Shown: positions 16,345 through 53,641, counted from the stretch's first letter. The stretch: DNA of 64,000 bases from an uncultured Phycisphaerales bacterium (GCA_963771925.1 CAVYVE010000003.1:30053-94052), one strand, 5' to 3'. A program made the numbers and translations. Notes: generated from the letters alone by a model not told the origin.

Positions 16345-16374
16345 TGGACATTTCTTACGAGATTTCACCGCCTG

Positions 16375-17866
16375 ATGCGAAGAGCGAAGCCGCGCCTGCG
16401 TATGGAAGGCGTGCGGAAACGATTCGGCGCGACCGTTGCGCTGGATGGGGTGGATTTATCCGTCGATTCCGGCGAGGTCTTGGCGCTGGTGGGCGAAAAC
16501 GGGGCGGGGAAAAGCACGCTGATGAAAGTTCTCTCCGGACGCACGCACCCGACGAGGGAAAAATGTGGCTGGAGGGCGGGAGTATCGGCCGCGCGATCCG
16601 CTGGAAGCGCGCCGCCGGGGCGTGGCGATGATTTATCAGGAACTGTCGCTGGCCAAGGACCTGAGCGTGATGGAGAACATTCTGCTGGGGATGGAGCCGG
16701 CGCGGGGGCCGTTTTTGCGGTGGTCGGAGATGAAACGCCGGGCGGCCGACGCGATGGCGCAGCTGGGACGGCCGGACATCGATCCGAGGATTTCGCTGGG
16801 AAAGCTTTCGCTGGCGCAGCAGCAATTGGTGGAGATCGCCCGCGCGATCTGCATCGGGTGCCGGGTGCTGGTCCTGGACGAGCCGACCAGCAGCCTGGCG
16901 CAATCGGATATCCGGCAGCTGTTTCGAACTGGTGAAGCGGCTGAAGGCCAGCGGATTGGCGATCATTTACATCTCGCATTTTCTGGAGGAAGTGCGGGAG
17001 ATTTCGGATCGGTTCACGGTCCTGCGCGACGGCAAAAGCGTCGGCGGTGGACCGACGGCGGCGACCGCGCACGGCCCAGATCATTTCCATGATGGTCGGC
17101 CGATCGGTCGATGATCTGTATCCGCGCTCGCGAGAAAGGCCGGGGAAGTGGTGCTGGAGGTCAAACATCTGGCCGGGGAATCGCAGGCCGGTCGATGCGA
17201 GCTTTTCGCTGCATCGAAGGTGAAGTCGTGGGGATTGCCGGGCTGATCGGGGCCGGACGCACCGAGCTGCTGCGCAGCATTTTCGGATTGGACCGGATCA
17301 AGAGCGGGGAGGTGCGCGATCGCGGCGTATGTCGGGCCCGCGTCGCCCGCGCGGCGATGGGCCGAGAAAGTGGGATTGCTCAGCGAAGACCGAAAAAGCG
17401 AAGGATTGGCGGTCGGTCTGAGCATCGCGGACAATCTGACGATGACGCGGCTGGGCTGGCTGGTGAATCCGACGACACAGGCGGCGCAATCGCGGCAATG
17501 GATTCAGAAGCTGCGGCATTCGCTGCCGCTCGCCGCGGCAGGCGGTGAGCGATCTGTCCGGCGGCAATCAGCAGAAGATCGCCGTCGCCCGGCTGCTGCA
17601 CCACGACGTGGACGTTTTCCTGCTGGACGAGCCGACGCGCGGCATCGACGTGGGATCCAAGGCGGAGATTTACCGGCTGATCGACGAACTGGCGTGCCGC
17701 GGCAAGGCGATCCTGATGGTCAGCAGCTATCTGCCGGAATTGCTCGGGCGTGTGCGACCGGATCGCGGTGATGTGCAAGGGCCGGCTGGTCCGGTCGGTT
17801 CCGGTGGATCAAACCAACGAACATCAGATTATGCTGGAAGCCACCGGCGCCCTGGAGACGGCATGA
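16375..17866 (+). pseudogene. sugar ABC transporter ATP-binding protein (RbsA/MglA-like, two ABC cassettes), at least 8 frame changes
   Basis: Motifs present: Walker [24 protein letters not shown], signature [14 protein letters not shown], Walker [12 protein letters not shown], a second Walker A GIAGLIGAGRTEL, a second signature [15 protein letters not shown], and [15 protein letters not shown]. Each lies in a different ORF-track fragment. Confidence 0.85.
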
Positions 17867-18903
17867 CGACCTCGCCGATACCGACGCAAACCTCCCCGCC
17901 GCCATCGCACGCCGAGTGCGCCGCCGTCCTCGGCCGAGCAGTTTTCCGACCTTCTGGGAACGATGGGGCCGATCGTGGGGCTGTTTTTCGTCTTCGCGAT
18001 CTTCGCCATTCTCGAGCCGAGAACATTTCTGACGCTGGATAACCTGCAGATCATTCTGCTGAACACGGCGGTGGTCGGCACCGCGGCGCTGGGGGCGACG
18101 GTCATCATCATCTCCGGCGGGATCGACTTGTCGGTGGGATCGAACATCGCGCTGTGCACGGTGGTCATCGCTTTGTGCCGACTGCACGGCCTGACGCCGA
18201 GCGTGGCGGCGCTGCTGCGGCATCGCCGCCGGCGCGAGCGTGGGCTTGCTCATCGGGCTGCTGGTGACGCAGTTCAATCTTTCGTCGTTCATCGTCACGC
18301 TCGGATTGTGGGGCGCGGTGCGCGGACTTGCGAAACGGCTGGCCGGCGGCAGCGAAATCTCGACCCAGCCGAGCTGGATCAGCCATCTTCTGCAAATGCT
18401 CCCGCCCGGACAGAAGTGGATGATCGTGCCGCCGGGCGTCTGGCTGCTGCTGGTCCTGAGCGTTTTCGTCGCGGCGGTGCTGCGATACACGCGGTTTGGA
18501 CGGCACGTCTTCGCCATCGGATCCAACGAACAGACCGCCCGCCTGTGCGGCGTCCCGGTCGACCAGAACCAAGCTGCTCATTTTCGTCTTCGCGACCGTC
18601 TTCGCCGGGATCGCCGGCGTGCTCCAGTTTTCCTATCTGAACAACCTCGGCGACCCCACCACCGCCAACGGATATGAACTGAACGTCATCGCCGCGGTGG
18701 TGATCGGCGGGGCAAGCCTTTCCGGCGGCAAGGGAAACATTTTCGGAACCCTCGTCGGGGCGCTGCTGATGACCATGGTGGCCAACGGATGCAACAAGAT
18801 TCCGAGCCTGACCAATGCCGATCAGGATATCGTGACCGGCGCGATCATCGTTGCGGCGGCGGGATTCGATCAGTTCCGGCAATCGCGGGGGATGGCAAAA
18901 TAG
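17863..18903 (+). pseudogene. sugar ABC transporter permease (RbsC-like), at least 3 frame changes
   Basis: The ATG at 17863 overlaps the ATPase stop (ATGA). Motifs present: GGIDLSVGS, FIVTLGLWGAVRGLA, RYTRFGRHVFAIGSNEQTARLCGVPV, VIGGASLSGGKGNIFGTLVGALLM. They lie in fragments 17963-18640, 18240-18677 and 18496-18903. Confidence 0.8.
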
Positions 18904-35664: not shown

Positions 35665-35899
35665 TTGATCGCCAGCTCGCGGCGTTCAGGCAACCAGCCT
35701 TCGCGGCGTCCCGAGCTTCCGATGGCGCAAAGGCTGGTCTCTATTCCGAGGCCAGTATGGACCGCCGACGCCGGGCTTGAATAGACGACCCTCCGCATGA
35801 TTGGGAAACTCCGGTCCAGTTTGAGTCGTATGGCTCAAACTGGACCGATGCGTTTGTTGCAACGATACGATCTACCGAAAACATATTGAGGTGCCTTTC

Positions 35900-37730
35900 A
35901 TGGCCACATTTCAGCGTGCTGCGATTCTGACGGCAGTCTTTTTTTTTGCTGGAATTGCGCCTTGCATCTCGGCGTCTGCCGACGCGACTGGCCCGGTGAG
36001 GGTGGAACTGCGTAAGACCGAAACCGGCTGGACGCTGATTCGACACGGCCAGCCTTATTTCATTCAAGGCGCCGGTGGCGACGCCTCCCGAAAAATGCTC
36101 AAGAGCTGCGGCGGCAATTCCTTCCGCACCTGGGGGGCCGATGACATCGGCGATCAACTCGACCAAGCTCACCGCCTCGGCCTGACCGTCACCGTCGGTA
36201 TCTGGCTGGAGCATTCGGGCGGCCCGAATCATTTCGATTACCACAATCCGCGGCAGGTCGCCGAACAGCTCGAAAAGGTGCGGCAGGCCGTTTTGAGGTA
36301 CAAGGATTATCCCGCGGTTCTTGTATGGGGCATCGGCAATGAAATGGAGGGATACAAGGACGGAGGCGATCCGGCAGTTTGGAAGGCCGTCGAGCGAGCC
36401 GCGGCTTTGGTGCACAAGCTCGACCCCAATCACCCGACGATGACGGCGATCGCTGAGATCGGCGGCAAACGCGTTGCGTCCATCGACGAATATTGCCCGG
36501 ACATCGACATCGTCGGCATCAATACTTACGCGGGCGGCCCATCGGTGGCGCAGCGGTATCGCCAGCTCGGCGGATTTAAGCCGTTTATCTTGACCGAGTT
36601 TGGTCCTGGCGGCACCTGGGAAGTCGGCAGCAATGCCTGGGGAGCCCCGATCGAACTCACCAGCACCGCCAAGGCCCTGGAGTATCGGCAAACGTATCTT
36701 CGCTCGATTCTCCCCGAACGGGGAAAACTGTGTCTCGGATCGTACGCGTTTTTGTGGGGAAACAAGCAGGAAGCCACCGCGACATGGTTCGGAATGTTCC
36801 TCCCGGATGGGACACGATTGGCGGCAGTTGACATGATGGCGCAACTCTGGACAGGCCGGCCGCCGGCGCATCCTTGTCCGACCGTTGATCCCATAACGCT
36901 GGATCGCGCCGATGTCGAAGGCGGCGCGACCATTCACGCCACGCTGGACGCCAGCGACGCCGATGATTATCCCCTGACGGCCAAATGGGTGCTGACGGTC
37001 GATCCCGCGGTGTATCAAACCGCCGGCGCATCAGGATGAGGCGCGTGTGATTCCCGGTGCGATCGAATCCGGCGACATTCACGGCGCGGTAATTCACATG
37101 CCCGATCGGACCGGGCCGTATTGGCTTTATGCCTACGTCCATGATGGTCACGGCGGCGGCGCCACGGCGGTGGCATCGCTACATGTCCATCCCACGGCGC
37201 CCGCCCCTTCTCAATCCGGCGCTGCCCGCGCGCGGCTTCCGCTGGTCTTGTACGGCGATGGAGCGGAGAATCCTCCTCCCTTTGCCTGGTCGGGTTGGAT
37301 GGGCGATTTGAAAGCTCTCGCGGTAGACGACAAGTGCTCGACCAATCCGCATTCCGGTACGACGTGCATGAAGTGCCAGTTCAAAGCCGCCAGCGGCTTC
37401 GGTGGAATCGCCTGGCAGAGCCCGGCGAACAATTGGGGCGATCAGCCGGGACTCGATCTGCGCGGCGCACGCAAACTTACCTTCTGGGCGCGCGGGGAAA
37501 ACGGCGGCGAGGTCGTCAGCTTCAAGCTCGGAATCCTCGGCCCCGATGCAAAATTCCCCGATTCCGATCACTCCGAATTGCCCGATGTGACCCTCAGCAC
37601 CGATTGGAAACAATACAGCATAGACCTGAGCGGCAAAGATCTGAGCCGAATCGCCACGGGCTTCGTCTGGGTGGTCTCGGCCTCGGGAAAACCGGTCACC
37701 TTTTATCTGGATGATGTACAATACCAATGA
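35900..37730 (+). CDS. secreted clan GH-A (GH2/GH5-like TIM barrel) glycoside hydrolase with a C-terminal carbohydrate-binding-like domain, one frameshift near 37025
   Basis: The product has a signal peptide, then YFIQGAGG, YPAVLVWGIGNEMEG (acid/base-type NE), LDPNHP, IDIVGINTY, FILTEFGPGG (nucleophile-type E) and ATATWFG. The 37047-37730 frame continues the protein (beta-rich, DDVQYQ end). Confidence 0.65.
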
Positions 37731-37985: not shown

Positions 37986-39830
37986 ATGAGGAACCATCGA
38001 AACAGTCGAGGATCAGCGGCCCTGGCGGCGTGCACGGCGGGAATCTTTTCGGCGGCGATCGCATCGTACGCCTGTGCGCAGACCAATCTTGTGATCGACT
38101 ACAATTTCGCCGCCGGCGTTGATGGATCTCCCGACGCCTCCACCGGCGACGTGCCCATGACCAACTCCCTCAACCCCGACGCTGGGCCGTGGATGGGCTG
38201 GAACAACTGGGTATATCCATACGCAGGATATTATTGCAGCACAGTCGATACCGGTCTCCCCTCGACATCCAGCGGCAATGGTGGAAGTGACCAGTACGGC
38301 AAGACCTTTGGCGGCAACAATGGCAACCCTGGGACCAGCAACGGCGGCATCTACCAGTACGTCGGCGCCACCGCGGGCGATACCTACACCGCCTCCGGGT
38401 TTTTTGACAACTCGGCCATAGCTAACGACGGCGAGGACGAACTGAACAGTGGCCAAACCGACTCCGTTGAAATGCTTTTCTATTCGGGAGCCGACGGCAC
38501 AGGGACCACCTTGGCCACCAACGTCTCCGCCAGGGAATGTTAACCAGAACTCGCCGACAGATATCTGGACGCAGGAAAGCGTCACCGGAGTCGCCCCCAT
38601 TGGAACAGAATCGGTCGAGTGGTTGGCGTTTTTCTACAATCCGAACTCCGCAGGCGGCGCCTCTATGTTGACGATGCCAGCCTCGTCCAGGTCAACTTGA
38701 CACCAACTTGGACCGGCGGCGGCGCGGACGATAACTGGACGACTCCCGGAAACTGGGGCGGAACCGCGCCGGTTGCCACCAATGCTTTGGTCTTCGACGG
38801 TAACACTCAAACCACCAACAACAATAACTTCGCCGCCAATACCGCGTTCGACGGAATTACCTTCAATCCCACGGCCGGCGCGTTTGTGCTGGGTGGAAAT
38901 TCGATCGCCCTTGCCGGAGACATCGTCAACAATAGTTCGAGCGCGCAGACCGTCAATCTCGCCCTGGCGCTGCCAGCAAAACACAAACGTCAACGCGGCC
39001 GCGGGCAACATCACCATCGGCGGCGCGATCAGCGGGGGATTCTCGCTGACCGCGAACGGCGCCCATGTCGTTACGCTGACCGGGTCCAATTCCTATTCCG
39101 GCGGAACCAACGTCAGCGCCGGCACGCTCGTCATCGGCGCGGCCGGGCGCTTCCGGCCAACAGCGCGGTCTCCATCACCGGCGGCACCTTGAAACTGGCC
39201 CTCAACACCGGCGGCGAAACGCTGTCGTCGTTGTCCATCTCCTCCGGCAGTGCCTTGGATATCGGCAATAACCATATTATCATCAGCGATCCAGGCGGCA
39301 GCATTGACGCCGCGATCCGCGGCTATCTGGCCGACGGTTACAACGGCGGAGCATGGAACGGCACCAGCGGCGGCGGCATCGTCACCTCCGCCCCGACCTC
39401 GATCGGCGCCGGCACATATAGCATTGGTTATGCGGACGGCGCCAATGGTGTCGTCGCCGGCCTGTCTTCCGGCGAACTCGAAGTCGCATACACCCTGGCC
39501 GGCGATGCAAATCTTGACGGCAAGGTTGACAGTGCCGACTTTGGCATTCTGGCCGACAACTACGGCGCTTCGGGCGCGGTTTGGGATGAGGGCGATTTCA
39601 ATTACGACGGCAAGGTAGACAGCGCGGACTTCGGAATCCTGGCGGTCAACTACGGCCAATCGGCCGGCAGCAACGCCGACGTGGTGACGGCGGCCGACTG
39701 GTCGGCCTTGGACGCCTTCGAGTCGGCCAACGACATAACGCTGTCCGCGGTTCCGGAGCCGGCCTCCGCGGGGTTGCTCGTATTGGCCTGTTTGGGATCG
39801 CTTGCTCGACGGCGAAAGCGGGCGGTATAA
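37986..39830 (+). pseudogene. PEP-CTERM protein with an N-terminal lectin/CBM-like region, autotransporter-associated beta-strand repeats and a dockerin-like module, 4 frame changes
   Basis: The product has a signal peptide (AALAACTAGIFSAAIASYACAQ), WTGGGADDNWTTPGNWGG, the LTGSNSYSGGTNVSAGTLVIG repeat type, GDANLDGKVDSADFGILADNYG twice, and the anchor VPEPASAGLLVLACLGSLARRRKRAV. The reading path alternates between two frames near 38530, 38660, 38965 and 39140. Confidence 0.75.
39488..39655 (+). repeat. dockerin-like double EF-hand module (copy A)
   Basis: It encodes YTLAGDANLDGKVDSADFGILADNYGASGAVWDEGDFNYDGKVDSADFGILAVNYG. It is about 90 percent identical at nucleotide level to 42076-42243, based on 16 mismatches in about 156 nt aligned by hand. 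Confidence 0.75.
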
Positions 39831-39839
39831 TCCGATTGG

Positions 39840-42540
39840 ATGAGAAGGGCGCGGAGTTTTTGTGTTGTTAGATATTTGTGCTGCGAGCCTTCACGCGTGA
39901 GTGCGGCCATTCCATTCCGGCGCATCTCCGGCGCTCGGCGACGTCCGCGCCGATCGGTTTCCCGTGACGCACAGTCCATCTCTCGCGCCTGCTGTACCCT
40001 TGAATCTTTGGAGGGCCGCGTCCTTTTGTCATCCGCACCGGCCGCGCCGGCGGGCGTCTTGGCGACGAATGGAACGACGCCGACAGATATCCAAGTTAGC
40101 TGGAACACCACGGCGGAGGCAACGTCGTATCAGGTATGGCGAAGCACCACGGACACCACATCTTCCGCGACCGATATCGCTCCCAACGTCACCGGCACGT
40201 CCTTTGACGACACCTCGGTCACCGTCGGCACAACTTATTTTTATTGGGTGGTGGCGTCCAACACGTCGGGGAACAGTTCCTACAGTGCGATCGCCAGCGC
40301 TACCGGCGGGACTTTGGTGTGGGACGACACGTTCGGCGCCACTGGAATCAGTTCCGCATGGGGCCCTGACAACCCGACCGATCCAAACAACCAGAACGTC
40401 ATCTACACCAACACGTCGGCCGCGAATTCCACCGCCGACAATCCAACGACCCTGCAAGTTGTCAGTGATTCCCAGGCCACCGACGGGCAAGCTCTGGCGA
40501 TGTCGCTGACGCCTTCACCCACGAACAATGGGGAATACGATTCCGCGGAAATCTGCACGGAAGTCGATCCATCCGGCATCGCCAACAATATGGAATACGG
40601 CGAGATCCAGGCCCGCATCAAAATACCCGGCGGAAACAACAGCGGGGCGATCTGGCCCGCGTTTTGGCTGCTCGGCGATGACATCAGCACGGTCGGCTGG
40701 CCCAAAAGCGGTGAGATCAACGTCATGGAAAATGACGGCGCCAACCCGAGCACCATTGATTCGACCATTCACGGGCCGATGGCCGACGGCCAGGATTACA
40801 ACTACGGATCGGGCGTGGGGGCTTCCTACACGTTGTCCGGAGGCCAGGACTTTTATTCCGGCTATCATATTTTTTCCGTGAATTGGGGACCGAATTCCAT
40901 CACATTCTCGGTTGACGGCCAGGCTTTCGAGACGCTGACCCCCGCAAGCATTCCCTCGGGAAGCAGTTGGGTATTTAACGGCAAGCCCTTTTTCATTATC
41001 CTGGACGTCTGCGAAGGCGGCGACTTCGCCCCCGGCACTATCACCAGCACGCAGACGATGGATGTGGATTATGTGGCGCGCCTACAGCCTGCCGCCGCCG
41101 ACGGGCCTCGTGGCCGCGATTGCGACCAACAGCAGTCCCGCCAATGTCAGTTGGAGCGCGGTCGACGGGGCCACGTCGTATGAAGTTTGGCGAAACACCA
41201 CCTCGAGCGTTTTGTCGGCCAAGGAACTTGCCGGCGACGTGACGAGCACGTCGTACTCCGATTCTTCGGCGGCTTCCGGAACCAATTACTATTACTGGAT
41301 CGTTTCAGCCAATGCCGCGCAAACGAGCGGTTATAGCGCGTCGGAGGTCACGAGGCTCACGCCCTCCGTAACCATCTCCTCTGCACCGGCAAATATCACA
41401 TACGACGGGACCAGCGACGTAACCAGTTGGGCATCGACCGGCGTAACCGGCGTGACTGGCTCGCCCGCCCCAACCGGATCGGCCAGCCTGGTCTATTACA
41501 ACGGCACGACCGACACCGGGACGCCGCTGAGTTCTCCGCCGATCGGCCTCGGCACTTACACCGTCGTGGGGACTTATGCGGGGGACGGCAATTATGTTCC
41601 GGCCCAGAGTTCGCCGGTAACGTTCACCATCAATAATCCAACCGGGCTTTCGACCGGTAACGGCGCCCAATATACGATCACCTGGAACGGGGAAACGCCG
41701 ACGTTGGATGTCTCCGCGGGCATCGTGACACTCAGCGCCGATCTTTCCGTCACGTTTCCCAATTACAATCTCACGGTCGAAAGCGGCGCGAGCGTTTTGC
41801 TGGATGCCGGCCAGCATATCGCGCAGCTCGAGGTGATCGGCAACGGGACTCTCAACGTCGACTCGTATTGGGTGATCGTCAACTACGGAGCAGGCCCCGA
41901 TCCGTTTTCGACCATCGAATCGTATCTGGCGAGCGGCCACAACGGGGGATCATGGACTGGTCCCGGAATCGTCAGCACCGCCGCGGCCACGAGCTACGGC
42001 CATTATGGCGTCGGGGTTGCCGACGGCGCTGATGGCGTCGTCTCGGGCCTCGCCTCCGGCCAGATCGAAGTCCTCTATACGCTCTACGGCGATGCGAATC
42101 TCGACGGCAAGGTCGACAGCGCCGACTTCGGCATTCTGGCCGACAACTACGGCGCTTCCGGCGCCGTTTGGGATCAGGGCGACTTCAATTACGACGGCAA
42201 GGTCGATAGCGCCGACTTCGGATTGCTGGCCCTCAACTACGGCAACAGCGGCAACTCCAATTTGCCCAGTATGCAGTTGTCGACCGTAACGTTGACGCCA
42301 ACAACAACCACCGGGACGGTGGTATCCACAATATCGTCCACGCAATCGATCACACCGGCGGCGTCCACTACCACGCCCCAGACCGTTGCCAACGCCACTC
42401 CAATCGCCGCGAAGCGTCCTCCGTCAAAATTCTCAGCCGCGACAAGTTCTTTCGCTGTTGCGACAATACCCCTTTCTAACGGCATCGCAAAGAGTCCCCA
42501 GCGACATAATACGGACGCCGAATTCCTTTCCAACCAGTAA
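39840..42540 (+). CDS. GH16-family beta-glucanase (laminarinase-like) with Fn3-like modules, a dockerin-like module and a Thr/Ser-rich tail, one frameshift near 41075
   Basis: The GH16 catalytic strand is WPKSGEINVMEN (ExDxxE type), with WPAFWLLG and VDYVRAY-type ends. Two modules of the type SWxxxxxATSYxVWR follow. Fragments 39840-41183 and 41062-42540 join at MDVDYV/RAYSLPPP. Confidence 0.75.
42076..42243 (+). repeat. dockerin-like double EF-hand module (copy B)
   Basis: It encodes YTLYGDANLDGKVDSADFGILADNYGASGAVWDQGDFNYDGKVDSADFGLLALNYG. See copy A. Confidence 0.75.
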
Positions 42541-43589: not shown

Positions 43590-44834
43590 TCACACCGCCA
43601 TCGCGGGTTGTGGCGGAAGGTCGAACGGCCGGGACGCCGCAGCTTGAACTGGGGCCGGTTTCGCGGCCGACTTCGGACCGCGGATTTTCAGGCGCTTGGC
43701 CAACCGCATGCAGGGGGCTTCGACCGTCTTGTGCAACACGTCCGCGGCGATGATGCTGCAAGCGATGGCCGAGATGTAGGCGAACAGGGCCAGAAGCGGC
43801 GACTTGTCGCCGTAGGTCAGGAAAATGTCGATCACGGCGACGCCGACAGCCACGTGTATGAGATAGAGGCTGTAAGAGATTTTGCCCAGGTACTGGATCC
43901 ATCCCCAGGAAAGCCAGACGGCCATCTGGCCCAGACGGGCGCAGAGATAGATCAGCAAAATGGTCCCGACGGCGGCGAAGACTCGGTAATCGAGTCGCCA
44001 AAGCTGGCCCGCAAGCGTGGCGCCGATCAATACCCAAAACCAGCGCTCGCGGATTTTTCCGGAAAAGGTCCAGGCGAAGACGGCGCCCATGGCGAACATG
44101 AACCACATGCCGCTGAAATTCATCTTGTCTTCGCCGTAGCGGTAGAAAATCGAATAGATGGTAATCGCCGCGAATACCGTGGCCAGAGTCCAATTCCCCG
44201 CTCGTTGTCCGAAGCGCTCCCGAATCCTTTGGGCGATCATCAACGTGATGATGATGGTGAGATAAAACCGCACTTCAAGGCAAAGGGTCCAGGCGACGCC
44301 CACCACCAGGAGCTTGTTCATCACGTCCGGCACGTAGAACATGTTCCCGAGAATCGTGCCGGCGCCCCAGTAGTGGAGGATCGTCGATGTGTATTTGTGC
44401 CACAGAACGCAGCGGTATCCAATCGTAAGGAAAATGACGGCCCAGTAGGGAGGATCGAGGCGGATGGAGCGGCGAATCATGAAATTCGCGGCGAATTTCG
44501 GGGTGCAGACGTCGTTTCGCAGGGTGTAGGCGATGACGAATCCGCTGAGCACGAAGAAAATCTCCACGCCGACGTAGCCTTGCAGCAAGACCCAGTCCAC
44601 CGCGGCCGGCGTGTATGGGGCAAGCAGATAGTGGAGCTTGGAAACGATCGGCGTATAGAAGTGAAAGAGCATGACGAGCAGCGCGGCGACGCCGCGAAGG
44701 CCGTCGATGAAAAGCAGGCGCGCGGCCGGCGAGCTCTGCGGCGCCGCGCCGGCGGGTTCCTGACGGGAAGCAGAACTCTTCGGTGCGCTTTGCAAGGCGA
44801 TGGTCATGATGATCTCCCTCACCAACGGCCACAT
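43590..44834 (-). CDS. acyltransferase family 3 membrane protein (polysaccharide O-acyltransferase candidate)
   Basis: Intact 414-aa ORF. FIDGLRGVAALLVMLFHF is followed by about 10 helices, which is typical of acyltransferase_3/OafA-type enzymes. The start could also be the second Met (44807). Confidence 0.75.
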   Translation of the reverse strand: MWPLVREIIMTIALQSAPKSSASRQEPAGAAPQSSPAARLLFIDGLRGVAALLVMLFHFYTPIVSKLHYLLAPYTPAAVDWVLLQGYVGVEIFFVLSGFVIAYTLRNDVCTPKFAANFMIRRSIRLDPPYWAVIFLTIGYRCVLWHKYTSTILHYWGAGTILGNMFYVPDVMNKLLVVGVAWTLCLEVRFYLTIIITLMIAQRIRERFGQRAGNWTLATVFAAITIYSIFYRYGEDKMNFSGMWFMFAMGAVFAWTFSGKIRERWFWVLIGATLAGQLWRLDYRVFAAVGTILLIYLCARLGQMAVWLSWGWIQYLGKISYSLYLIHVAVGVAVIDIFLTYGDKSPLLALFAYISAIACSIIAADVLHKTVEAPCMRLAKRLKIRGPKSAAKPAPVQAAASRPFDLPPQPAMAV

Positions 44835-44850: not shown

Positions 44851-46508
44851 TCAAAATCGATAAGAGAGCGCGGCTCGTAATCCGGTTCCGGAATAATTGG
44901 TGAACGATCCGGGAACGTAGTAGTACAGATACTCAACGGAGGCTTCCAAATGGTCGGCGACGTGCATCGCCGGGCCGATGGCCACGGTGGTGCCGAATTG
45001 CGATGCGTCGGGAACAAATGGCAACTCGACCCGGACGTGCACGGAGAGCCATTTGAAAATATGCGGCTCGATCTCCACGACCGGCCCAAACGTCTGATAC
45101 CAGTGCGGAGAGTTGTAAGCCGAAACGGAGATTTGATAGTCAATGACTTCGTATTCCACGCCTAATCGAAGCTGGGCCGGAGCCCACAGGAGATAGGTCG
45201 GCTCGGCATGGATGAAGTTGCGCCCATTTCCATCGGAATAGAAAGCATGGCTGGCGGAAATCCTGGCGCTGAGATTGTCGGTGAGTTGGCAGCCGGCGCC
45301 CAAACCGATGACATCTTGCGTGACCCCTTCCGCGACCGTGGCGATGCTGTCATCGACAGGATCGTTGAAGTGATAAAAGCCGTAAAGCCACGCCGACTGT
45401 GACGGTACCCAGGTCGATCCCAGGCTAAAGCCGGCCTTGTCAAAGGAATTGACCTGGAAGCCCGAAGCGCCGCCTTGCAGGGAGAGGGTGCTGTCAACGT
45501 GATCTTCGACGCCCAAGCCCTCTTCGTATCGAGTTACGTTGCCGAAATCCGTGTCATGGTTGTTGAACCAGCCGGTGTTGAACGTGCCGTCGACATGCAC
45601 GTGATCCGAAACGGCCGCCGAAAGGGTGTTGAACAATCCGGACTGATAGAAATTGTCGGTTCCCTGAAAGTAGAAGTATTTGGAGGAGAGCTGCGCGGCC
45701 CGGCTTTGCTGGATTTCGTTGAGGCCGGATTTGGCGCTGTAATAGCTGGGATCGACAAGCATGGCCTGGGTGTATTCGGCCTGGGCCTTGGTTAGATTCC
45801 AATTGGCGCGATTGATGTCTCCCAGCAAAGCCAGGGCGGCAGCGGATTTGGGATCTCTTGCCAGAACGCTTTGGGCAATCCTCCTGGCTTCGTCGGTTCG
45901 GCCACGCGATTTGAGGAACTGCGCGTAGTCAAGATTGATCCACTGGTCCGTCGGGGCGAGGTCCAGTGCGTCGAGATAGGCGCGTTCCGCTTCTTTGTAT
46001 CGACCGGCCTTTTCCAGCGCCTGCGCCAGTTGACCCGGCTCCACGGATCCGAGGGATTGCGCTGCGCCATTTCGCGCAGCACCTGGATTTGCCGACTGGT
46101 GCGGCCGGTAAGCCCTGCGGCCTTGGCGAGCATTTCGCCCCAGCCCGGCACTTCGGGCGCGGCGCGGTACACGGCCTCAAGGTGCGGATAGGCCAGTGCG
46201 GGCTCGTTCAATGGTGCGAGGTACAGGTATCCCAGCGAGCGTTGCAATGACATATCTTCGGGATGTTCTTCAGAGCAGACCTCCAGCGCGGCCGCGGCGG
46301 CGGCGCAGTCGGCCTCGGACTTGGTTTGATAAGCCTTGGCTTCGAGCCGCCTGGCGTGTTGGAGTTGCGCGGCATACTGGCGGGCGGTGAGTTTGCCCGA
46401 AAAGTTGAGAGACTGCGCCACCGCGGCGTGAGCCGATAAAAAAATGATCGTCGCCAGGATCACCCCGACCCCGGCGCGTTGCAGGTGGATGGGAACTTTC
46501 GCATTCAT
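44851..46508 (-). CDS. TPR-repeat plus C-terminal beta-barrel outer-membrane exporter (PgaA/BcsC-like architecture), one frameshift near 46040
   Basis: ATG 46508 overlaps the synthase stop (ATGA). The product has a signal peptide (GVILATIIFLSAHAAVAQ) and TPR-like helices (AYLDALDLAPTDQWINLDYAQFLKSRGRTDEARRIAQSVL). The C-terminal roughly 270 aa have alternating beta-strand character and end with ...GLRAALSYRF. Confidence 0.65.
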
Positions 46509-49500
46509 GGATTGCCTTGGCCCTGCCTCCATGGAATATGGGTATGGGAATTCCCGATCCGGACGGGAATGTTGGCTTCATCCATACCGCTGGGAGTAAT
46601 CACTTCGAGCTGAATACGATAGTCACCAGGCTGACCGGGCAAATCGATCATGGCATCCGCTCCGCCACGGAGGGGAACAATGTGCCCCACATCCGCGGCA
46701 AAACCGGGACCGGACACGGTCCAGTGATACTGAGGCTGCTCACCGTTGTACGATTTCACGTCCGTTCGAACGAGGAACGGTTCATGCGGCCACTGCGGAT
46801 CGGTGGGGTATTCGACGTTGACGATTCTCGGACCCCCGTAGGGGTAGGTGCCGTTCAGTTTCGGGTCGGGATTCCACCACGCATATTTGAGAGCAAAATA
46901 AGCTGGCTTAAGCCGGCCATCCAAATCAGCGATTCCGAACCAAGTTGCCGTGCCTTCGTAGCGGTCTCGCCAGCAATAGGCGATGCCGCCGACGTTCCAA
47001 CCGGCATTGGGCTGGATATATTCGCGCCAGCGATGGGAGTAAAGCCAAGCCTTGTAAATTGCGGTATCTTCGACCAATCCGCCGCCGGCGTCGTATTCGT
47101 TGTATTTGTTTTCCCAGTAGCCATTGGGTCCGAATTCGCTGACCAGATAAGGCCGGGTGGGATCGATGCGGGCCGCGATCTCCTTGAGGTGGGAAATGTC
47201 CGGTTCGTAATAACTATTGACGGCGATGACATCCACCGCCGGCGCGCCCTTGGCAAAATCCGAAATGGCTCCGGCAATTTGCGTCGATTCATTGGCGCAG
47301 AAAACGGGATGATTGGGGTCGAGTTCTTTGATCCGCTGCGCCATTCGCTGCACGAACAGCACATAGGAGTGGCGAACCTCGGTTAGATAGGGTTGGCCGT
47401 ATTCGTGTTTCAGCAATCCCCACACCTCGTTGCCGAGGCACCAGCCGAGCAAGCCGGGATGATCGCGATACTCCAGCACGGTCTCCTCGATTTGCCGTTC
47501 GTAGGCCGCTTCCTTTTCCGTATCGGTCAGGTAATCGACATCCTGAACGAACCAGAAACCATACAGGACCTTAAGCCCGTTATCGGAGGCGGCATTGAAA
47601 ATGTTGCGGTCGGACCATGTCTCGCCGTAGCGGCGAATCGTGTTGCCGCCCATGGCGCGGATGGCTCGAAAGTCCTCGCTTAACTCACGGTGGCTGAGGG
47701 GCACGTCGGCATCGCGCCAGTCGTGGCCCGGGTTATAGGCAATGCCTTTGATGTAGTAAGGGGCCCCGTCGATCATCAGCGAAAAATGCCCCGGCGAGCC
47801 GCGCACGCACGGCGACGGCGAGCGAACCGGTTGCAGATCGCCCCAGAGCGTCTGATCGGCTGAGAGGCGCTCGAGCGCCGCCGTCACTGAAGGGCGCCAA
47901 TTTGAGTCCCTCGCCCATCGACGACAAAGCCAGGGAATCGTCGGTCCAGCCTGAGTTGCCGGCTTGACCGGGATCGAGCAATGCGCCGGGGATCTCTCGC
48001 GCTCGTGACTGCTGTCGCGAAACACGACCGCCTTGATCTCGGGATAAAACCGTGAGATTCTCGACATGGCATCTTGCATCCATCCGGCGCGATCGGCGTC
48101 GGCCTTGGGGGCATCCAGATCCATAATCATGACGGGCAAATGCCAGGCCTTTGCTCTCGAGCGAAACGGCTCATAAATATCGCCGAATGAGCTGGCGCCG
48201 GCGTCGGCGCCATTCGCGCCGGACACGGCAATCCAATCGACGTAGCCTTCTCCGGCTTCGCCGGGGAAATAGAAATCCATGCTTTGAGCGCTGGCGGGGT
48301 TCCAGACCCAACCGGCATTGGTGGCGCCTTCAGAGTCGAACGTGGTAAGGATCCGTCGCCAAGCCGCTATGAAATCGGCCGGCCTGTTGCCACCCGACAC
48401 CGACCAGGGCATTTGCGGGTTGTCCGGCTGCGGCGCAAAACAGATCAGCACCGGCTCGCCAAAGGCGCGAACGTCGTCCGCGAAGCGGCGGATGTAATCG
48501 TCAAATCGTCCGGCGGCGATGGATTTGAGAATCGCCCGATCGCCCGGCCGAACCGTCGCCGCGTCAGGGCCGTGACTTGACGGAAGCCAGTTGATCATCG
48601 GGATCGCGCCGCCGCGCCGGATTTCCTTCAGCATCGTGATCGGGAAGTCCGCGTCGGCGTTTGCGGTCCACCACTGATTCAGGGCGACGATGCGGAAATT
48701 AAAATCGAGTCCCTTCTGGAGGGACGCGAGCCTCGATGACCTTCGGGTGCTTTGAGTGTCGCCCAGATCGATCCCGGTGTAGAAACCGCCGACGTTGACA
48801 TTTTTGTTCAACTCGAATGGAACTTCAATCGTTTGGGCTTGGGGCCGCACCATGGCGATCACGTAGCCGGCGCAGATCGTCAGCGCGATGGCGGCGGGAA
48901 TCACGCGGCCCTCGCGGATCTGGCCCAGAACGACATCGTATAAGCGGCCCAGCACGCGAATCACCGGCCTCACGAACACGTCGCGAACCTTGCGCATCAT
49001 CGAAAGACGCCGGCGAAGGGCGCACAGCGTGCTTTGCTGCGCGATAATCGAAACGTAGATCAAAGCAATGGCGTTGGCTGAACCCAAGGCGCCCATAAAC
49101 AGCGCGGCGGGCGAGGAATCCCTGTAAACGCCGATGACGACGGCGACCGTTAGAATTCCACCGGCGATGAAATTCGGCATGGCGACGTCACCGGCGTCGC
49201 TGGGCTTGTCTTCCTTCGGAGTTGGGATGTAGGGCACTTTGATGCGGAATACGGCGCAGAGAACTCCAACCAAGTAGACCCACCAGGTGGCCGTCGCCAG
49301 AACGCCGCCGGCCAGATGAATCCCGCGTTCGCGCGGCTCCAGGAGCCATCGCTGGACCCGAAGGCGCACCAGCATTCCGAGAATCAACATCGGAGCCACG
49401 GCGGCGAGAATCTGCGGCAGCGTGGCCCGCCAGGCGATCAGCCCATAAGAAAGGCACAGCACCGGGACCACCATTTCCAGCAGGCCGACCAAGCCTCGCA

Positions 49501-50605
49501 GGAAAAATATGGGACAGAGCAGGAAATGGATTTTCTGGCGGAGATTGAATCCCTTGAACAGGCTGGGATATTCCTGGAACAGAAGATCGAATACGCCGCA
49601 ACTCCACTTCAGTTGCTGTTTGTAAAACGCGCCGAGGGTTGAGGGCACGAGTCCGCGCGTGAGGATTTCCGGCACGTAAACCGAACGCCATCCCTTGGAG
49701 AAAAGGCGCATGGCGGTGTGCATGTCCTCGGCAAGCCCGGGCGCGTGCCCGCTGATCGTGTCCAGGGCGACGCGTCTGAATACGCAGTTGGCCCCGATCG
49801 CCTGCACGGTCCCGTGGCCGTGCATTCCCATCATGAACGGTCCGTAGAAGTGATACGACTGCTCGGCCGCGCCGCGCGCCACGAACGAATCGCCGGCGTT
49901 GCGATAGGCCTGCACCGACTGAACGAATCCCACGGCCGGATCTTCGAAGTATCCCAGTGTGCGGTGGAGCAGATACGGCGCCGGCTCGTGATCGGGATCG
50001 AGCACGACCGCGATCTGGCCCGTACACTGCGCCAGGGCGTTGTTGATGTTTCCGGCCTTGGCATTTTTCTTTTCCTCTCGGGTGACATGGATGACGCCCA
50101 GCTCGTCGCAAATCTTCTTCAGCCGGGGATCGTTTCCCTCATCGCAGAGATAATTCTTGTGGGGATATCGAACCGCGGTCATCGCCTTGAGGGTGCGGGC
50201 GATCATTCCGATCGGTTCGCCCGGGCACGCGGTGGTGAGCATATCGACGGCCCATCTTCGCCGCGGCCGCAGGACCGGCGGAGCCGAGATCGCCCAATAG
50301 TTGTACCATTCAAACAGCGACGCAAACGCCCGCAAAGCCATCGCGCCGGTCAGCATCAAATAAACCGCTGGATCGCCCACGCGATCCGGATTCATCAGCC
50401 ACGCCAGCAGCCCGATGACCGAGACCGCCGCCACCAGGATCAGCAATCGCAGCTTGAGAAGTTGCCCGCGCGAGGGCGGAGTCACGCGAACCGGCTGGGC
50501 CGGCCACCGCATCGGCGACCAGCCTTCCATCGCGCGATTGGTCTCGTTCAGATCGCTTTTGACCGTCGCGGCGGACCTCGAAGGATATTGGACGTCGGTA
50601 GACAT
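46505..50605 (-). CDS. multidomain polysaccharide synthase: processive GT2, multi-TM region, GH26-like domain, clan GH-A TIM-barrel domain and an Ig-like tail
   Basis: Intact 1366-aa ORF. GT2 motifs in order: CDEGND, VLDPDH, LAEDMH, QQLKW. There are about 8 hydrophobic helices. Next come QWWTANADADFPITMLKEIRRGGAIPMINWLP and DDYIRRFADDVRAFGEPVLICF, then YYIKGIAYNPG, LLGWCLGNEVWG, LDPNHP, VDVIAVNSY, YLVSEFGPNG and GTATWFG. Confidence 0.8.
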   Translation of the reverse strand: MSTDVQYPSRSAATVKSDLNETNRAMEGWSPMRWPAQPVRVTPPSRGQLLKLRLLILVAAVSVIGLLAWLMNPDRVGDPAVYLMLTGAMALRAFASLFEWYNYWAISAPPVLRPRRRWAVDMLTTACPGEPIGMIARTLKAMTAVRYPHKNYLCDEGNDPRLKKICDELGVIHVTREEKKNAKAGNINNALAQCTGQIAVVLDPDHEPAPYLLHRTLGYFEDPAVGFVQSVQAYRNAGDSFVARGAAEQSYHFYGPFMMGMHGHGTVQAIGANCVFRRVALDTISGHAPGLAEDMHTAMRLFSKGWRSVYVPEILTRGLVPSTLGAFYKQQLKWSCGVFDLLFQEYPSLFKGFNLRQKIHFLLCPIFFLRGLVGLLEMVVPVLCLSYGLIAWRATLPQILAAVAPMLILGMLVRLRVQRWLLEPRERGIHLAGGVLATATWWVYLVGVLCAVFRIKVPYIPTPKEDKPSDAGDVAMPNFIAGGILTVAVVIGVYRDSSPAALFMGALGSANAIALIYVSIIAQQSTLCALRRRLSMMRKVRDVFVRPVIRVLGRLYDVVLGQIREGRVIPAAIALTICAGYVIAMVRPQAQTIEVPFELNKNVNVGGFYTGIDLGDTQSTRRSSRLASLQKGLDFNFRIVALNQWWTANADADFPITMLKEIRRGGAIPMINWLPSSHGPDAATVRPGDRAILKSIAAGRFDDYIRRFADDVRAFGEPVLICFAPQPDNPQMPWSVSGGNRPADFIAAWRRILTTFDSEGATNAGWVWNPASAQSMDFYFPGEAGEGYVDWIAVSGANGADAGASSFGDIYEPFRSRAKAWHLPVMIMDLDAPKADADRAGWMQDAMSRISRFYPEIKAVVFRDSSHERERSPAHCSIPVKPATQAGPTIPWLCRRWARDSNWRPSVTAALERLSADQTLWGDLQPVRSPSPCVRGSPGHFSLMIDGAPYYIKGIAYNPGHDWRDADVPLSHRELSEDFRAIRAMGGNTIRRYGETWSDRNIFNAASDNGLKVLYGFWFVQDVDYLTDTEKEAAYERQIEETVLEYRDHPGLLGWCLGNEVWGLLKHEYGQPYLTEVRHSYVLFVQRMAQRIKELDPNHPVFCANESTQIAGAISDFAKGAPAVDVIAVNSYYEPDISHLKEIAARIDPTRPYLVSEFGPNGYWENKYNEYDAGGGLVEDTAIYKAWLYSHRWREYIQPNAGWNVGGIAYCWRDRYEGTATWFGIADLDGRLKPAYFALKYAWWNPDPKLNGTYPYGGPRIVNVEYPTDPQWPHEPFLVRTDVKSYNGEQPQYHWTVSGPGFAADVGHIVPLRGGADAMIDLPGQPGDYRIQLEVITPSGMDEANIPVRIGNSHTHIPWRQGQGNP

Positions 50606-51014
50606 ATATCGTTACGAACAAATAGCGGCCACCACTGCAAAAGCCGCCGCAATAAATCGCTCGCCCCGATTCCACCTGGGAACACCCCGGACTGGCTGAG
50701 ATGGACTTTACCACGCTCCCTGGACGCGGCGCTAAATACGGCCGAGACGGCGGCACAGATGGCCGATAGTACTGAGAACTTGCGTCAAGTTTTTAGATGG
50801 TGGCGATTGTGAGATCGCCACATGCACCCATCGAATATGGAACAGCTTTAACGTTCTTTTGCGCCGATGCGCGCGTCGTCCTACAGATATGGACCCTACC
50901 TATGCGACCAATCCATAGTCGTGAATATCCGCGTACGGCTCCTCGACGCGGTTTCGCTGCGAAGCGCGAGGCGCCTGCACCACGAAATTTGCCCGGCGTT
51001 CATCGTTCGGCAGA

Positions 51015-52396
51015 TCATTTACCACGGCGGCCTTCAACTTCGCTCCGTGACGTTCTGAGAAAAATCGCGGCCTCAACGGCTTTCTCCATGTTGGTCCGTT
51101 TGGCGCTCAGCACGAGAATCGTCGCGTTGGAGCGAGCGGCCAGCGCAACCGTATCTGGATTCTCCAGAACCGGCCCGGCGTCAAACAGAACGTAGCGATA
51201 CGCGGAACGCAATTGGTGGATCACGTCGGTCACCGCGCGTCCCTGCAGCCTGGCGGCCGCGGACGACGACGGTTTCCCGCACGGAAGCAAGAAAAGATTT
51301 GGCACATGAGTCGAGCAGACGAATTCTGCCGCGGCGGTCGGATTGTCCAGCGCTTCACAGAAACCCAAAAGCGATTCGGGCTGAGTCAGCAACTTGTGCT
51401 GGATTGGACAGCGCATGTCCGCATCCACCAGAAGCACGCACTCCCCCGTCAGAGCCAGAGTCGCGGCGAGATTCAGCACAACCGTCGAACGACCTTCACC
51501 CCGCGAGGGAGAAGTGATCAACACCGATCCGCGTTGCTGGCTGACTTCGCCTCCCAACAGATTCATCAGCAACGCCCGGCATGAGATGGCCACTTCCGAT
51601 GTAGGATCAATATGGGCCGCGAGGCTTTGAGCCGCCGGAGACGCCCGTCGCGAAAGCGACGGCAAATACCCGGCGGTCTGCAAACCGGTCATCCTAAGTA
51701 TCTGCGACGGCGATGCGACGCGACGGTCCAGAGTTGCCCGTATTAGCACGATGGCAATCCCCAGAACCAATCCGAATGCCGCCGCCAGCGCCATCAGCAA
51801 TTCCGGCGAGGCGCCGATTGGCCCAACATCGGGGTTTGCCGGTATGGCCCGATAGATCGCATTCTGATCCAGACCGGAAAGCCCTTGGCCTCGATTCATC
51901 TTGAGACGTTCCTGTGACAACAGGGCTTCAATGACGCCATCGACCACACGGCTGGCCTCATGCGGGTATTTGGAGATCAATACAATTTCCAGTTTTCCCG
52001 CGGACGCATGCACGGTCGCGTGCAATTTGCTGCGCAAGGCCGCAATCGATTCGTGTTCGGAGCCGAAGACCGAAAGCTCAGATGCGTCGATGTATTCAAC
52101 TGCATTTGACAGGATTTCGTCAGAGTAGGCCGCATCCGCCAGATTGGTCAGCCCGTCGACCGACATCGAACCTACAAGAATGTCAGCATGGCTAAGCGCT
52201 CGCGGGGCGGATTCTTGAATAAAACCTCGCACGGCGTAGGTGCGCCCACGGACAGCAAATAGACCATCATTGCCAGCGCTGTGGCAAGCGTCGTCAACGC
52301 CAAAACAAACCGTCCGTCCATGATGCGACGGGCAATGCCTGTAAAGCGATTACCGGAAACAACACCGGTTTCCCTACTATTTTCCACCGCGTGCAT
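51015..52396 (-). CDS. polysaccharide co-polymerase (Wzz/GumC-like) fused to a BY-kinase-like P-loop domain with a degenerate Walker A, one frameshift near 52230
   Basis: An N-terminal TM helix (FVLALTTLATALAMMVYLL) lies in fragment 52172-52462, and a second TM is LLMALAAAFGLVLGIAIVLI. The P-loop reads LITSPSRGEGRST (Arg where the GK[ST] Lys is expected, codon CGT checked in the DNA). Walker A' is VLLVDADMRCP and Walker B is YVLFDAGPV. There is no C-terminal Tyr cluster. Confidence 0.7.
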
Positions 52397-52663: not shown

Positions 52664-53641
52664 TCAGCCTTCTATCAGAGTTAATGCCCCAGGCGAGAAT
52701 ATGTTGGAGATGAACTCGATATCGAGATACTCCGACCCCGAGCCGCCGACGACGGCGTAACCGGACTTGGGTTTCAAAAACTGGTTGTCTTCGACGGTGA
52801 GGTCGCTGATCGTTGGGCCGTTGGACCAGTAAAGGAATCCCTCTTTATCACCCGTTGAAGTGTTATCCATGAAGGTATTGCCCGAATTCGCCGCCCCCCC
52901 GGCATAGGTAAACGCCGCGTATCCATACCCGGCGTTGTTCGCCGATTGGCAGTCGATCACCATGGAGTTCGTCACGCCGCCGTCCAGATCGAATCCGCCC
53001 CCGTCGTTGTCCCGGGTCTTGTTATTGTGGCTATAGCAATTGCTGATGGTGACATCATTGCTGTCATACGCCCAGATGCCGTCCGGCCCGTCGGCCGCAT
53101 TGTTATTGCCGCCGTTGCCGTAAGCCTGGCAGTCTTGCACCGTCGCCCCGTTCAATCCGGCCAGCATTATCCCGCTGCCCGAAGGCGAATTGCTCCCCGC
53201 GATCCCCAAGTTGTTGTACGCCGTGCTGTTCAGCAGCGAAAATCCCGTGATCGACTCCGTGGCCCCATACGTCGATATCCCGGCAATGCCATTATTGAAC
53301 GCGGTAACGTCCGACAGGCTGATGTTGGCATACGTCCCGTCCCCGGCGGTGCCGATCACGACGCCGTAGCCCGAAGCGAATCCCGACACGGTCACATCGC
53401 TCAGCGTCAAGCCGCTGACGCCCGGCTCATCGGATTCGAAGGAAATTCCATTGCCGCTCTTTCCAATCACCTGCACGTTGCTGATCGACACTGAACTAAC
53501 GTCATACCCCGTCAATCCCCCAACCTTATGGCCGTTGCCATGGAGGGTTTCTCCAGATTGCAGCGTCAAGACTTTGGTTGTGTCCACGGTAAGAGTGACG
53601 ACGGAAAATAGCGTCCGCGATTCCAGGGCTTCGATAAACAT
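52664..53641 (-). CDS. right-handed parallel beta-helix repeat protein (polysaccharide lyase/hydrolase-like fold)
   Basis: Intact 325-aa ORF with repeated motifs of the type I.N..V.G..GNGI / V.DC.A.GNGG / ISNCYSHNN. The N-terminus starts directly with MFIEALESRTLFS, and an in-frame TAA lies 17 codons upstream. Confidence 0.7.
   Translation of the reverse strand: MFIEALESRTLFSVVTLTVDTTKVLTLQSGETLHGNGHKVGGLTGYDVSSVSISNVQVIGKSGNGISFESDEPGVSGLTLSDVTVSGFASGYGVVIGTAGDGTYANISLSDVTAFNNGIAGISTYGATESITGFSLLNSTAYNNLGIAGSNSPSGSGIMLAGLNGATVQDCQAYGNGGNNNAADGPDGIWAYDSNDVTISNCYSHNNKTRDNDGGGFDLDGGVTNSMVIDCQSANNAGYGYAAFTYAGGAANSGNTFMDNTSTGDKEGFLYWSNGPTISDLTVEDNQFLKPKSGYAVVGGSGSEYLDIEFISNIFSPGALTLIEG

Follow-up and report, generated by a model that had tools for sequence, protein, structure and literature searches.

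The minus strand of a 64,000-nucleotide (nt) stretch of DNA from an uncultured Phycisphaerales bacterium (GCA_963771925.1 CAVYVE010000003.1:30053-94052), the whole of which is referred to here as the window, carries at positions 46505..50605 an ATG-started open reading frame (ORF) of 1366 codons that is free of any interruption. The encoded polypeptide joins a family 2 glycosyltransferase (GT2) synthase, a transmembrane (TM) region, a (β/α)8 barrel resembling glycoside hydrolase (GH) family 26, a second barrel of the GH158 type and an immunoglobulin (Ig)-like domain. No other ORF in the window reaches its 1366 aa, the second longest being 968 aa, and by our own arithmetic an open frame of 1366 codons would arise by chance with a probability of ~1e-19 at ~60% GC. 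A preliminary description of this DNA had already pointed to the length and integrity of the ORF, without stating its strand, and to a series of motifs, all of which are present in the order then given: CDEGND at residue 154, VLDPDH at 201, LAEDMH at 291, QQLKW at 330, FAPQPDNPQMPW at 723, LGNEV at 1057 and SEFGP at 1156. Its figure of ~640 residues behind the last membrane helix was wrong, however, the correct number being ~780 (residues 587-1366).

The synthase and its membrane region occupy the N-terminal part of the protein, for which, as for the remainder, all coordinates given below refer to the minus strand unless a plus strand is indicated. AlphaFold models were built as two fragments, residues 1-600 and 590-1366. 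Hydropathy and the modelled helices place an amphipathic helix (12-27), TM1 (46-70) and TM2 (79-103) at the N terminus (aa 1-103; 50297..50605), followed by a cytoplasmic GT2 catalytic domain with the interface helix IF2 (aa 104-352; 49550..50296). Pfam GT2 families match across residues 134-404 (E 2.5e-23), together with a weak Cellulose_synt match, and phmmer against the PDB retrieved Rhodobacter BcsA (E 1e-41). The model of residues 1-600 (119 homologues) had a predicted local distance difference test score (pLDDT) of 92.8 and a predicted template modelling score (pTM) of 0.91, and its top Foldseek match was again BcsA (E 1e-24, TM-score 0.68, query-normalised), followed by plant CesA, hyaluronan synthases and CslF6. 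The catalytic signature comprises D155 (CDEGND), KAG (183-185), D203-x-D205 (DPDH), QSVQ (229-232) and E293-D294 (EDMH), of which D155, D203/D205 and E293-D294 align to the BcsA motifs, with D294 as the predicted catalytic base. These hallmarks of a GT-A domain, i.e. the first Asp, the DxD and the (T)ED base, are invariant in the alignment of the query with 120 homologues on which the residue counts in this study are based. The QxxRW acceptor-binding motif is not present as such; IF2 instead carries QQLKW (330-334), with Lys in place of Arg in all 120 homologues and with the Trp retained, and on this alignment it is a variant of QxxRW and not a loss. The processive GT2 motif set that the preliminary description had placed in the N-terminal third of the protein is thus borne out by both sequence and fold.

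Behind the catalytic domain lie the channel-forming helices TM3 and TM4, interface helix IF3 (431-452), a gating loop, YIPTPK (459-464), and TM5 and TM6 (aa 353-521; 49043..49549), as assigned from the AlphaFold model and from the Foldseek matches to BcsA and CesA; Y459, T462 and K464 of the gating loop are invariant. Next come a long, basic helix on the cytoplasmic side (524-565) and an additional TM helix, the seventh (568-586), which together span aa 522-586 (48848..49042) and were identified from hydropathy and the model. A hydropathy scan finds two hydrophobic segments ahead of the GT2 domain and six behind it, just as had been counted before; one of the six (431-452) is nevertheless modelled as IF3 and does not span the membrane, so that the TM helices total seven, those after the GT-A domain and IF2 being 355-387, 396-420, 472-495, 499-521 and 568-586. 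The TM channel, interface helices, gating loop and overall fold of BcsA, CesA and hyaluronan synthases are all seen in the model, the loop reading YIPTPK as against FxVTxK of BcsA, and residues 1-586 therefore model as a BcsA/CesA-type processive GT2 synthase with seven TM helices. Because the GT domain needs the cytoplasm for its UDP-sugars, and because the Arg/Lys-rich stretch at 531-567 obeys the positive-inside rule, the remaining 780 aa (587-1366) should be periplasmic, delivered there by TM7. The best NCBIfam model was CelA (E 1e-46), yet scores were far under the curated cutoffs (TIGR03030, 159 bits versus 699; PRK11498, 116 versus 992), which by this measure means that the protein is not a CelA/BcsA equivalog. 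Pfam and NCBIfam profile searches of the protein found no PilZ domain, as previously noted, and there is no BcsB-like gene among its neighbours in the window.

The first periplasmic barrel (aa 611-865; 48011..48775) is related to the lichenase Lic26A. A residue-level phmmer alignment to Lic26A (2bvd) was obtained over ~611-865 (E 1e-13 to 4e-14), and Foldseek matched the same structure to the barrel (E ~3e-14, TM-score 0.77, target-normalised; root-mean-square deviation 3.2 Å). Lic26A (CelH), a 1,3;1,4-glucanase, was the sole solved GH26 relative detected by phmmer and Foldseek against the PDB. The Pfam GH26 model PF02156 does not match the window protein but passes its cutoff in another member of the family (P0026; 41.6 bits versus 20.2). 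Fold and sequence similarity therefore agree with the GH26-type barrel originally proposed, whereas the catalytic Glu pair of GH26 (the HE..NG acid/base and the strand-7 nucleophile) is missing: the acid/base Glu of Lic26A (HEANG) aligns with Gln726 (nt 48428-48430) and its nucleophile Glu (AEF) with Asp829 (nt 48119-48121). The earlier suspicion that the barrel might be non-catalytic, raised by the residues at the HE(M)NG site, is in this way strengthened by loss of the second residue as well, and the barrel is predicted to be catalytically dead. Across the family the dyad is intact (HE...E) in 41 of 121 aligned sequences, with Glu at both positions in 54 of 113 full-length members, and neither the query nor any of its 13 closest relatives has it, these sequences combining PQ with D, G, A or T. 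Pairwise identity of the GH26-like domain is 0.37 in members without the dyad as against 0.46, while the GT2 and GH158 domains of the dyad-less members are, if anything, more alike, with no faster divergence; the alignment thus fits relaxed constraint after catalytic loss, with the fold retained. In the window protein this barrel is, on sequence grounds, probably a binding module and not an enzyme.

A poorly conserved and partly disordered linker (aa 866-935; 47801..48010; 12-21% identity family-wide) leads to the second barrel. The model of residues 590-1366 (pLDDT 89.5, pTM 0.91) shows disorder at 872-890, i.e. model residues 283-301, where pLDDT falls to <50. The top Foldseek matches of this model were GH158 structures, GH158(Pro) at E 2.5e-27 and a TM-score of 0.81 and BuGH158 at 0.73 (both target-normalised), and phmmer gave the same two enzymes (E 1e-25 to 2e-26 and E 1e-18 to 2e-18, respectively). 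The (β/α)8 barrel (aa 936-1245; 46871..47800) is followed by a C-terminal Ig-like β-sandwich (aa 1246-1352; 46550..46870), whose strands lie at model residues 671-761 and which aligns to the Ig domain of GH158(Pro). In GH158(Pro) the acid/base is Glu143 and the nucleophile Glu229 (PMC13195107). As LGNEV falls exactly on LGNES, and VSEFGP on VTEFGP, of that enzyme, the equivalent residues are Glu1060 (nt 47426-47428) and Glu1157 (nt 47135-47137), a pair retained in 117 of 119 homologues. The clan GH-A barrel with an Ig tail recognized at the outset, with its acid/base-type LGNEV and nucleophile-type SEFGP, can accordingly be assigned to GH158 by sequence similarity, by the barrel with its C-terminal Ig-like domain and by the catalytic Glu pair, and the profile and structure searches identify the C-terminal modules as GH-like, GH26 and GH158. 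GH158 strictly requires a β-1,3 linkage between subsites -2 and -1, a requirement imposed by an aromatic platform of Trp77, Phe278, Tyr291 and Trp236 (PMC13195107). In the window protein Trp77 and Phe278 are each replaced by Tyr, Tyr291 by Phe (as in BuGH158), and Trp236 is kept; the Glu285 equivalent is also kept, Lys283 is replaced by Arg, and the position of Arg104, which forms a salt bridge in the tunnel, falls within a 3-residue deletion. Directly behind the acid/base Glu there are 8 inserted residues, VWGLLKHEYGQPYL (aa 1061-1075), which GH158(Pro) and BuGH158 lack and which are conserved fusion-family-wide (GNEVWGLLKHxYxQPYLTxVR); from its place beside the acid/base this insertion could reshape the plus subsites. 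We regard the fused module as a divergent GH158 endo-β-1,3-glucanase-type barrel with an Ig-like domain, predicted from sequence and model to be active.

Among 5.8 billion proteins searched, >120 clusters of 1280-1390 aa showed 87-99% query coverage and 39-64% identity; they carried generic names only, e.g. 'glycosyltransferase' or 'cellulose synthase (UDP-forming)'. Organisms, where the source names them, were Tepidisphaeraceae, Chthoniobacteraceae, Bacteroidota and Bacteroidia, so that, by these names, the fusion architecture would span Planctomycetota, Verrucomicrobiota and Bacteroidota. An exhaustive HMMER search with the periplasmic part against 1.84 billion 50%-identity representatives gave 162 matches <1e-30; 57 of the 154 sequences retrieved carry GT2, GH26-like and GH158 domains together, giving at least 57 clusters at 50% identity. 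Most of the shorter matches were fragments, their first residue aligning inside the query, and among the matches there were also standalone GH158 and GH26-like proteins that we judged genuine. The domain order first seen in the window is thus found widely, in three phyla and in metagenomes, and is not a one-off; since the family is so widespread, the window protein is an ordinary member of it. Conservation is highest in GT2 and lower in the GH158 barrel and then the GH26-like domain, identity to close and far homologues being 0.80 and 0.68, 0.69 and 0.52, and 0.50 and 0.36, respectively, and the GT2 motifs, including the Lys of QQxKW and the YIPTPK loop, are invariant across the alignment. The closest homologue (P0001, 64% identity, full-length) bears the JGI name 'exo-beta-1,3-glucanase (GH17 family)' and relatives elsewhere are named 'cellulose synthase'; automatic annotation catches one or other half of the fusion, never both.

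The closest named genomes are two metagenome-assembled genomes (MAGs) of uncultured Phycisphaerales (L001 and L002; 63% and 71% identity), both of which share the gene order of the window: a Wzc-like protein, the synthase, a 566-aa protein and an acyltransferase-3. The upstream gene (50903..52232) encodes a weak chain-length-determinant N-terminus and a tyrosine-autokinase/ParA-type ATPase, as indicated by TIGR01007, TIGR03018, Pfam AAA_31 and synteny. A BcsQ-like identity, suggested by Pfam, was rejected, because polysaccharide tyrosine-autokinase models score best in NCBIfam (TIGR01007, 92-101 bits) and BcsQ reaches just 28-39 bits. In the 566-aa protein, tetratricopeptide repeats (TPR) precede an outer-membrane β-barrel at the C terminus. 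Its matches include the PgaA export-porin model (E 1.6e-11) and BcsC, and it is encoded directly downstream of the synthase in L001, L002 and L008. In the window its gene (44851..46532) has lost 1 nt near 46029, seen as a 1-nt gap behind GCCGGGT when two relatives are compared, and as a result reads as two ORFs, 45792-46532 and 44851-46044; the 246-aa ORF 45792-46532 therefore encodes the N-terminal end of the frame-broken TPR-porin, and its reading as a separate gene of unknown function was rejected. The Wzc-like gene likewise switches frame near 51050, by its 3' end, its real C-terminus ...EEPYADIHDYGLVA lying in another frame. Further downstream, a membrane protein of the acyltransferase-3 family (43590..44834; Pfam PF01757, E 3e-21), syntenic in L001 and L002, is probably, from its family membership, an O-acyltransferase acting on the glycan. 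An inner-membrane synthase, a TPR/barrel porin and a periplasmic hydrolase, the components by which a synthase-dependent secretion system is recognized, are accordingly found in one locus, with the hydrolase fused to the synthase and the porin frame-broken in the window.

Breakage of neighbouring genes, noticed in the preliminary description, was confirmed for these two operon partners, and it raises the question of whether the locus is decaying, with an intact synthase whose export route is blocked by the single-base frameshifts in the TPR-porin (~46029) and Wzc-like (~51050) genes. We think this very unlikely: the broken genes contain no internal stops and otherwise share 62-73% identity with their intact orthologues, and the synthase keeps every catalytic residue. 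Moreover, in the related MAG L002 it is the synthase that is broken (323 + 1009 aa), a pattern typical of assembly indel errors and not of selection, and assembly indels are for that reason the simplest explanation of both breaks in the window.

Other members of the family have related but not identical surroundings. In L008 the synthase sits between a ParA/AAA_31 gene and a gene for a TPR protein, and in L006 it is followed by a TPR protein. An acyltransferase-3 gene comes directly after the synthase in the Bacteroidota locus L007, and in two further Bacteroidota loci (L009, 10945-13428; L010, 10846-13263) a ~800-aa membrane LtaS/OpgB-like transferase of the Sulfatase/alkaline-phosphatase superfamily lies directly downstream, which hints at phosphoglycerol-type decoration of the glucan there. 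A standalone ~435-aa GH2_C/GH158-like gene adjoins the synthase in five loci (L003, L007, L009, L010 and L011), and a standalone GH26 gene is also nearby in L007 and L010. Locus L007 additionally encodes, a few kb from the synthase (15228-18500), a second GT2 (Cellulose_synt-like, 636 aa) with DUF3131 and STAS proteins, which may be another glucan system.

Several other genes were noted around the operon. On the plus strand of the window, 35891-37039 encodes a standalone GH158 of the canonical kind (E 7e-83 to GH158(Pro), 3e-45 to BuGH158) that is 27% identical to the fused domain; this 382-aa ORF stops within the Ig-like region and may be truncated or frame-broken. A GH16 + fn3 protein (39840-41183, plus strand) is located between proteins with dockerin-type domains (38619-39830 and 41062-42540, the latter with Big_3_5); ORFs 39840-41183 and 41062-42540 overlap by ~120 nt, and the stretch 38619-42540 may be a β-glucan degradation cluster beside the synthase operon. 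A right-handed β-helix protein (PF13229) is encoded near the operon in all three genomes (window, 52664-53641, minus strand; L001, 6747-7769; L002, 16964-18184; 70-73% identical), although its position and orientation differ; it could be a glycan lyase, hydrolase or epimerase.

On balance we favour, with modest confidence, the view that the operon is a synthase-dependent system for an acylated β-1,3-containing glucan that is processed in cis by the fused GH158 domain. As had been suggested from the domain order, our best reading is of a single polypeptide in which polymerisation, translocation and trimming or transglycosylation of the product are combined. The GT2 domain would polymerise glucose from UDP-glucose into a β-1,3-containing glucan, either curdlan-like or mixed 1,3;1,4, and the nascent chain would be threaded through the synthase's own TM channel. 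The dead GH26-like barrel, which is nearest to the membrane, would hold or guide the emerging chain in a manner comparable to BcsB or the C-terminal domain of PgaB, and GH158 would then cut the chain in cis, or transfer it, thereby setting its length or releasing the product. In the Phycisphaerae lineage the product may be O-acylated by the adjoining acyltransferase-3 and exported via the adjoining PgaA-like TPR-porin, with the Wzc-like kinase perhaps standing in for the missing PilZ/cyclic di-GMP control.

Our choice of a β-1,3-containing glucan is based on four considerations. Similarity to glucan synthases is far stronger than to synthases of other polymers (NCBIfam/PDB: cellulose synthases, E 1e-46 and 1e-41; PgaC, 4e-11; NodC, 2e-7); the specificities of both fused hydrolase families point the same way, the GH26 relative being a 1,3;1,4-glucanase; the GH158 sugar platform is retained; and GH158, GH26 and GH16 genes recur in the neighbourhood. 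The same observations make us give little credence to the proposal that the polymer is another β-glycan, or is built from another UDP-sugar, with the specificity of the GH158-like and GH26-like domains shifted, for not only the sugar-stacking platform but also the translocation residues of GH158 are kept, the only GH26 structures matched are those of lichenase, and standalone GH158, GH26 and GH16 genes are found repeatedly beside family members. In favour of such a polymer it can be said that GH26 is mostly a mannanase family, that the fused GH158 is only distant kin of the characterised members, and that the synthase has a motif signature of its own. QxxRW, KAG, QxPH/Q and FxVTxK are fully conserved in the BcsA, CrdS and BgsA subfamilies (PMC6821405), where the fusion family has QQxKW, KAG, QSVQ and YIPTPK, and AIGANC replaces FFCGSA as a unique signature.

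A number of points weigh against the acylated β-1,3-glucan system that we favour. The GT2 core is just 26-30% identical to rhizobial BcsA/BgsA/CrdS-type synthases (tblastn against plasmids), and a product assignment from this similarity was dropped because such identities are too distant. When the subfamily residues of S8 Table (PMC6821405) were mapped via the BcsA alignment, they proved to be a mixture of BcsA-like, CrdS/BgsA-like and unique; given this mixture and the family's own signature, linkage type is unreadable from the synthase, and a linkage prediction from the GT2 domain was likewise dropped. The fused GH158 belongs to a divergent sub-clade, ~27% identical to the canonical GH158 of the same window, and this divergence, together with the conserved insertion next to the acid/base, suggests that its specificity or reaction type may differ. 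The Bacteroidota loci and some others lack the TPR-porin and Wzc-like partners, and in the window both of these partner genes are frame-broken. Finally, an active endo-glucanase tethered 1:1 to a synthase seems hard to reconcile with a long polymer.

A 1:1 hydrolase tether favours short products instead, and this speaks for a different outcome, possible in our judgement though doubtful, in which the GT2 domain makes β-1,3-glucan and GH158 acts mainly as a transglycosylase, so that the cell would make short, branched or cyclic periplasmic glucans with acyl or phosphoglycerol decoration, and no long exopolysaccharide, after the manner of NdvB or of osmoregulated periplasmic glucans (OPGs). The neighbours resemble OPG-decorating enzymes, namely the acyltransferase-3, which we take to be of the family of OpgC, and the LtaS/OpgB-like ~800-aa transferase of L009 and L010. 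The conserved insertion by the acid/base, through its possible effect on the plus subsites, and a weak Pfam match as well as Foldseek matches to GH72 Gas glucanosyltransferases are in keeping with a transferase, and GH158, like GH17, comprises retaining clan GH-A β-1,3-glucan enzymes. There is also a precedent in the NdvB 'Orphan' protein, for which a periplasmic GH17, TM segments and a cytoplasmic GT2 have been modelled in cyclic β-1,3-glucan synthesis (PMC10237404). However, no GH158 has been reported as a transglycosylase in the literature consulted (PMC13195107), and the neighbours of the synthase in the window and its relatives, a PgaA-like TPR-porin on one side and a Wzc-like protein on the other, argue for export across the outer membrane in the window lineage. 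A bolder version, which we consider fairly unlikely, is that the three phyla share an unrecognised class of glucan synthase in which GH158, more than simply a trimming hydrolase, is a transglycosylase or chain-length ruler, working with the dead GH26-like domain as a lectin to convert the nascent β-1,3 chain into defined branched or cyclic, substituted envelope glucans; GH158 would then have its first biosynthetic role, and the family would be a convergent counterpart of the NdvB and OPG systems.

Each of the components can be compared with a known system. In E. coli the OPG proteins OpgH (a GT2), OpgG, OpgB and OpgC are separate, OPGs are β-1,2/1,6 glucans, and OpgG is neither GH158 nor GH26; what is shared is the inner-membrane GT2, a periplasmic glycan-processing domain, an acyltransferase-3 (OpgC family) and, in Bacteroidota loci of the fusion family, an LtaS/OpgB-type phosphoglycerol transferase. 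BcsA, with BcsB, BcsZ and BcsC, provides the best sequence and fold match, with a GT-A GT2, D/DxD/ED/Q..W motifs, KAG, interface helices, gating loop and TM channel in common, and the Bcs system has the same logic of inner-membrane synthase, periplasmic clan GH hydrolase and TPR-porin. Unlike BcsA, the window protein lacks PilZ and a BcsB partner, has two N-terminal TM helices rather than four and an extra C-terminal one, and carries its hydrolases in cis, these being GH26 and GH158 and not GH8; its product is probably not cellulose. With NdvB/'Orphan' (PMC10237404) it shares a cytoplasmic processive GT2 joined through TM helices to a periplasmic retaining clan GH-A β-1,3-glucan domain, and the concept of synthesis, translocation and then cutting or transglycosylation. 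The domain order is nevertheless reversed, the GH part being C-terminal here, with GH26-like and GH158 domains instead of GH17; a Pfam search of the window protein gave no match to PF00332 (GH17), which sets it apart from NdvB-type proteins. There are two GH barrels here, one of them dead, the phyla differ and an outer-membrane porin flanks the gene. BuGH158 (6PAL) and GH158(Pro) (9ORO/9P25; PMC13195107) have in common with the fused module the barrel and Ig-like domain, the Glu pair in NE/EFGP, the platform and the Trp236 and Glu285 equivalents, but these characterised enzymes are soluble, catabolic and from polysaccharide-utilisation loci, whereas the fused domain is tethered to a synthase and ~26% identical to them. 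CtLic26A (CelH; 2BVD/2CIP) agrees with the first barrel in fold and sequence, and other fusion members keep its HE...E dyad in contrast to the two replacements in the window protein. CrdS (curdlan) and BgsA (mixed-linkage glucan) of Rhizobiales (PMC6821405, PMC5567048) are BcsA-like GT2 synthases without PilZ and have the product class predicted here; their tail after the last TM helix, however, is ~100 residues with no fused hydrolase, they are 26-30% identical, and the residues that discriminate them match neither.

The concept of a processive GT2 with a periplasmic β-1,3-glucan-active GH is not new, since NdvB has already been modelled as such a machine (PMC10237404). The architecture of GT2, extra TM helix, GH26-like, GH158 and Ig-like domains was not found described in the literature that we searched (GH158, fused synthases, curdlan/BgsA and NdvB), and the GH158 paper makes no mention of GT2 or synthases (PMC13195107). 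The component families being known, what is new would be the architecture, the family's own GT2 motif signature and a biosynthetic context for GH158. To our knowledge GH158 has so far been known solely from catabolic loci, and the fusion raises a possible biosynthetic role for it. In the well-studied synthase-dependent systems (cellulose, poly-N-acetylglucosamine, Pel and alginate) the periplasmic hydrolase is a separate protein, the role of which is still debated. Conservation of a natural 1:1 synthase-hydrolase fusion across three phyla, in at least 57 clusters (50% identity), argues that cutting is integral to synthesis, and the fusion offers a single-gene system in which the role of the hydrolase can be tested by point mutation, while the repeated loss of the GH26 dyad with the fold kept is a clean natural case of an enzyme becoming a binding module. 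The fusion further predicts a β-1,3-containing glucan from many uncultured Planctomycetota, Verrucomicrobiota and Bacteroidota, which bears on soil and aquatic carbon and on biofilm matrices.

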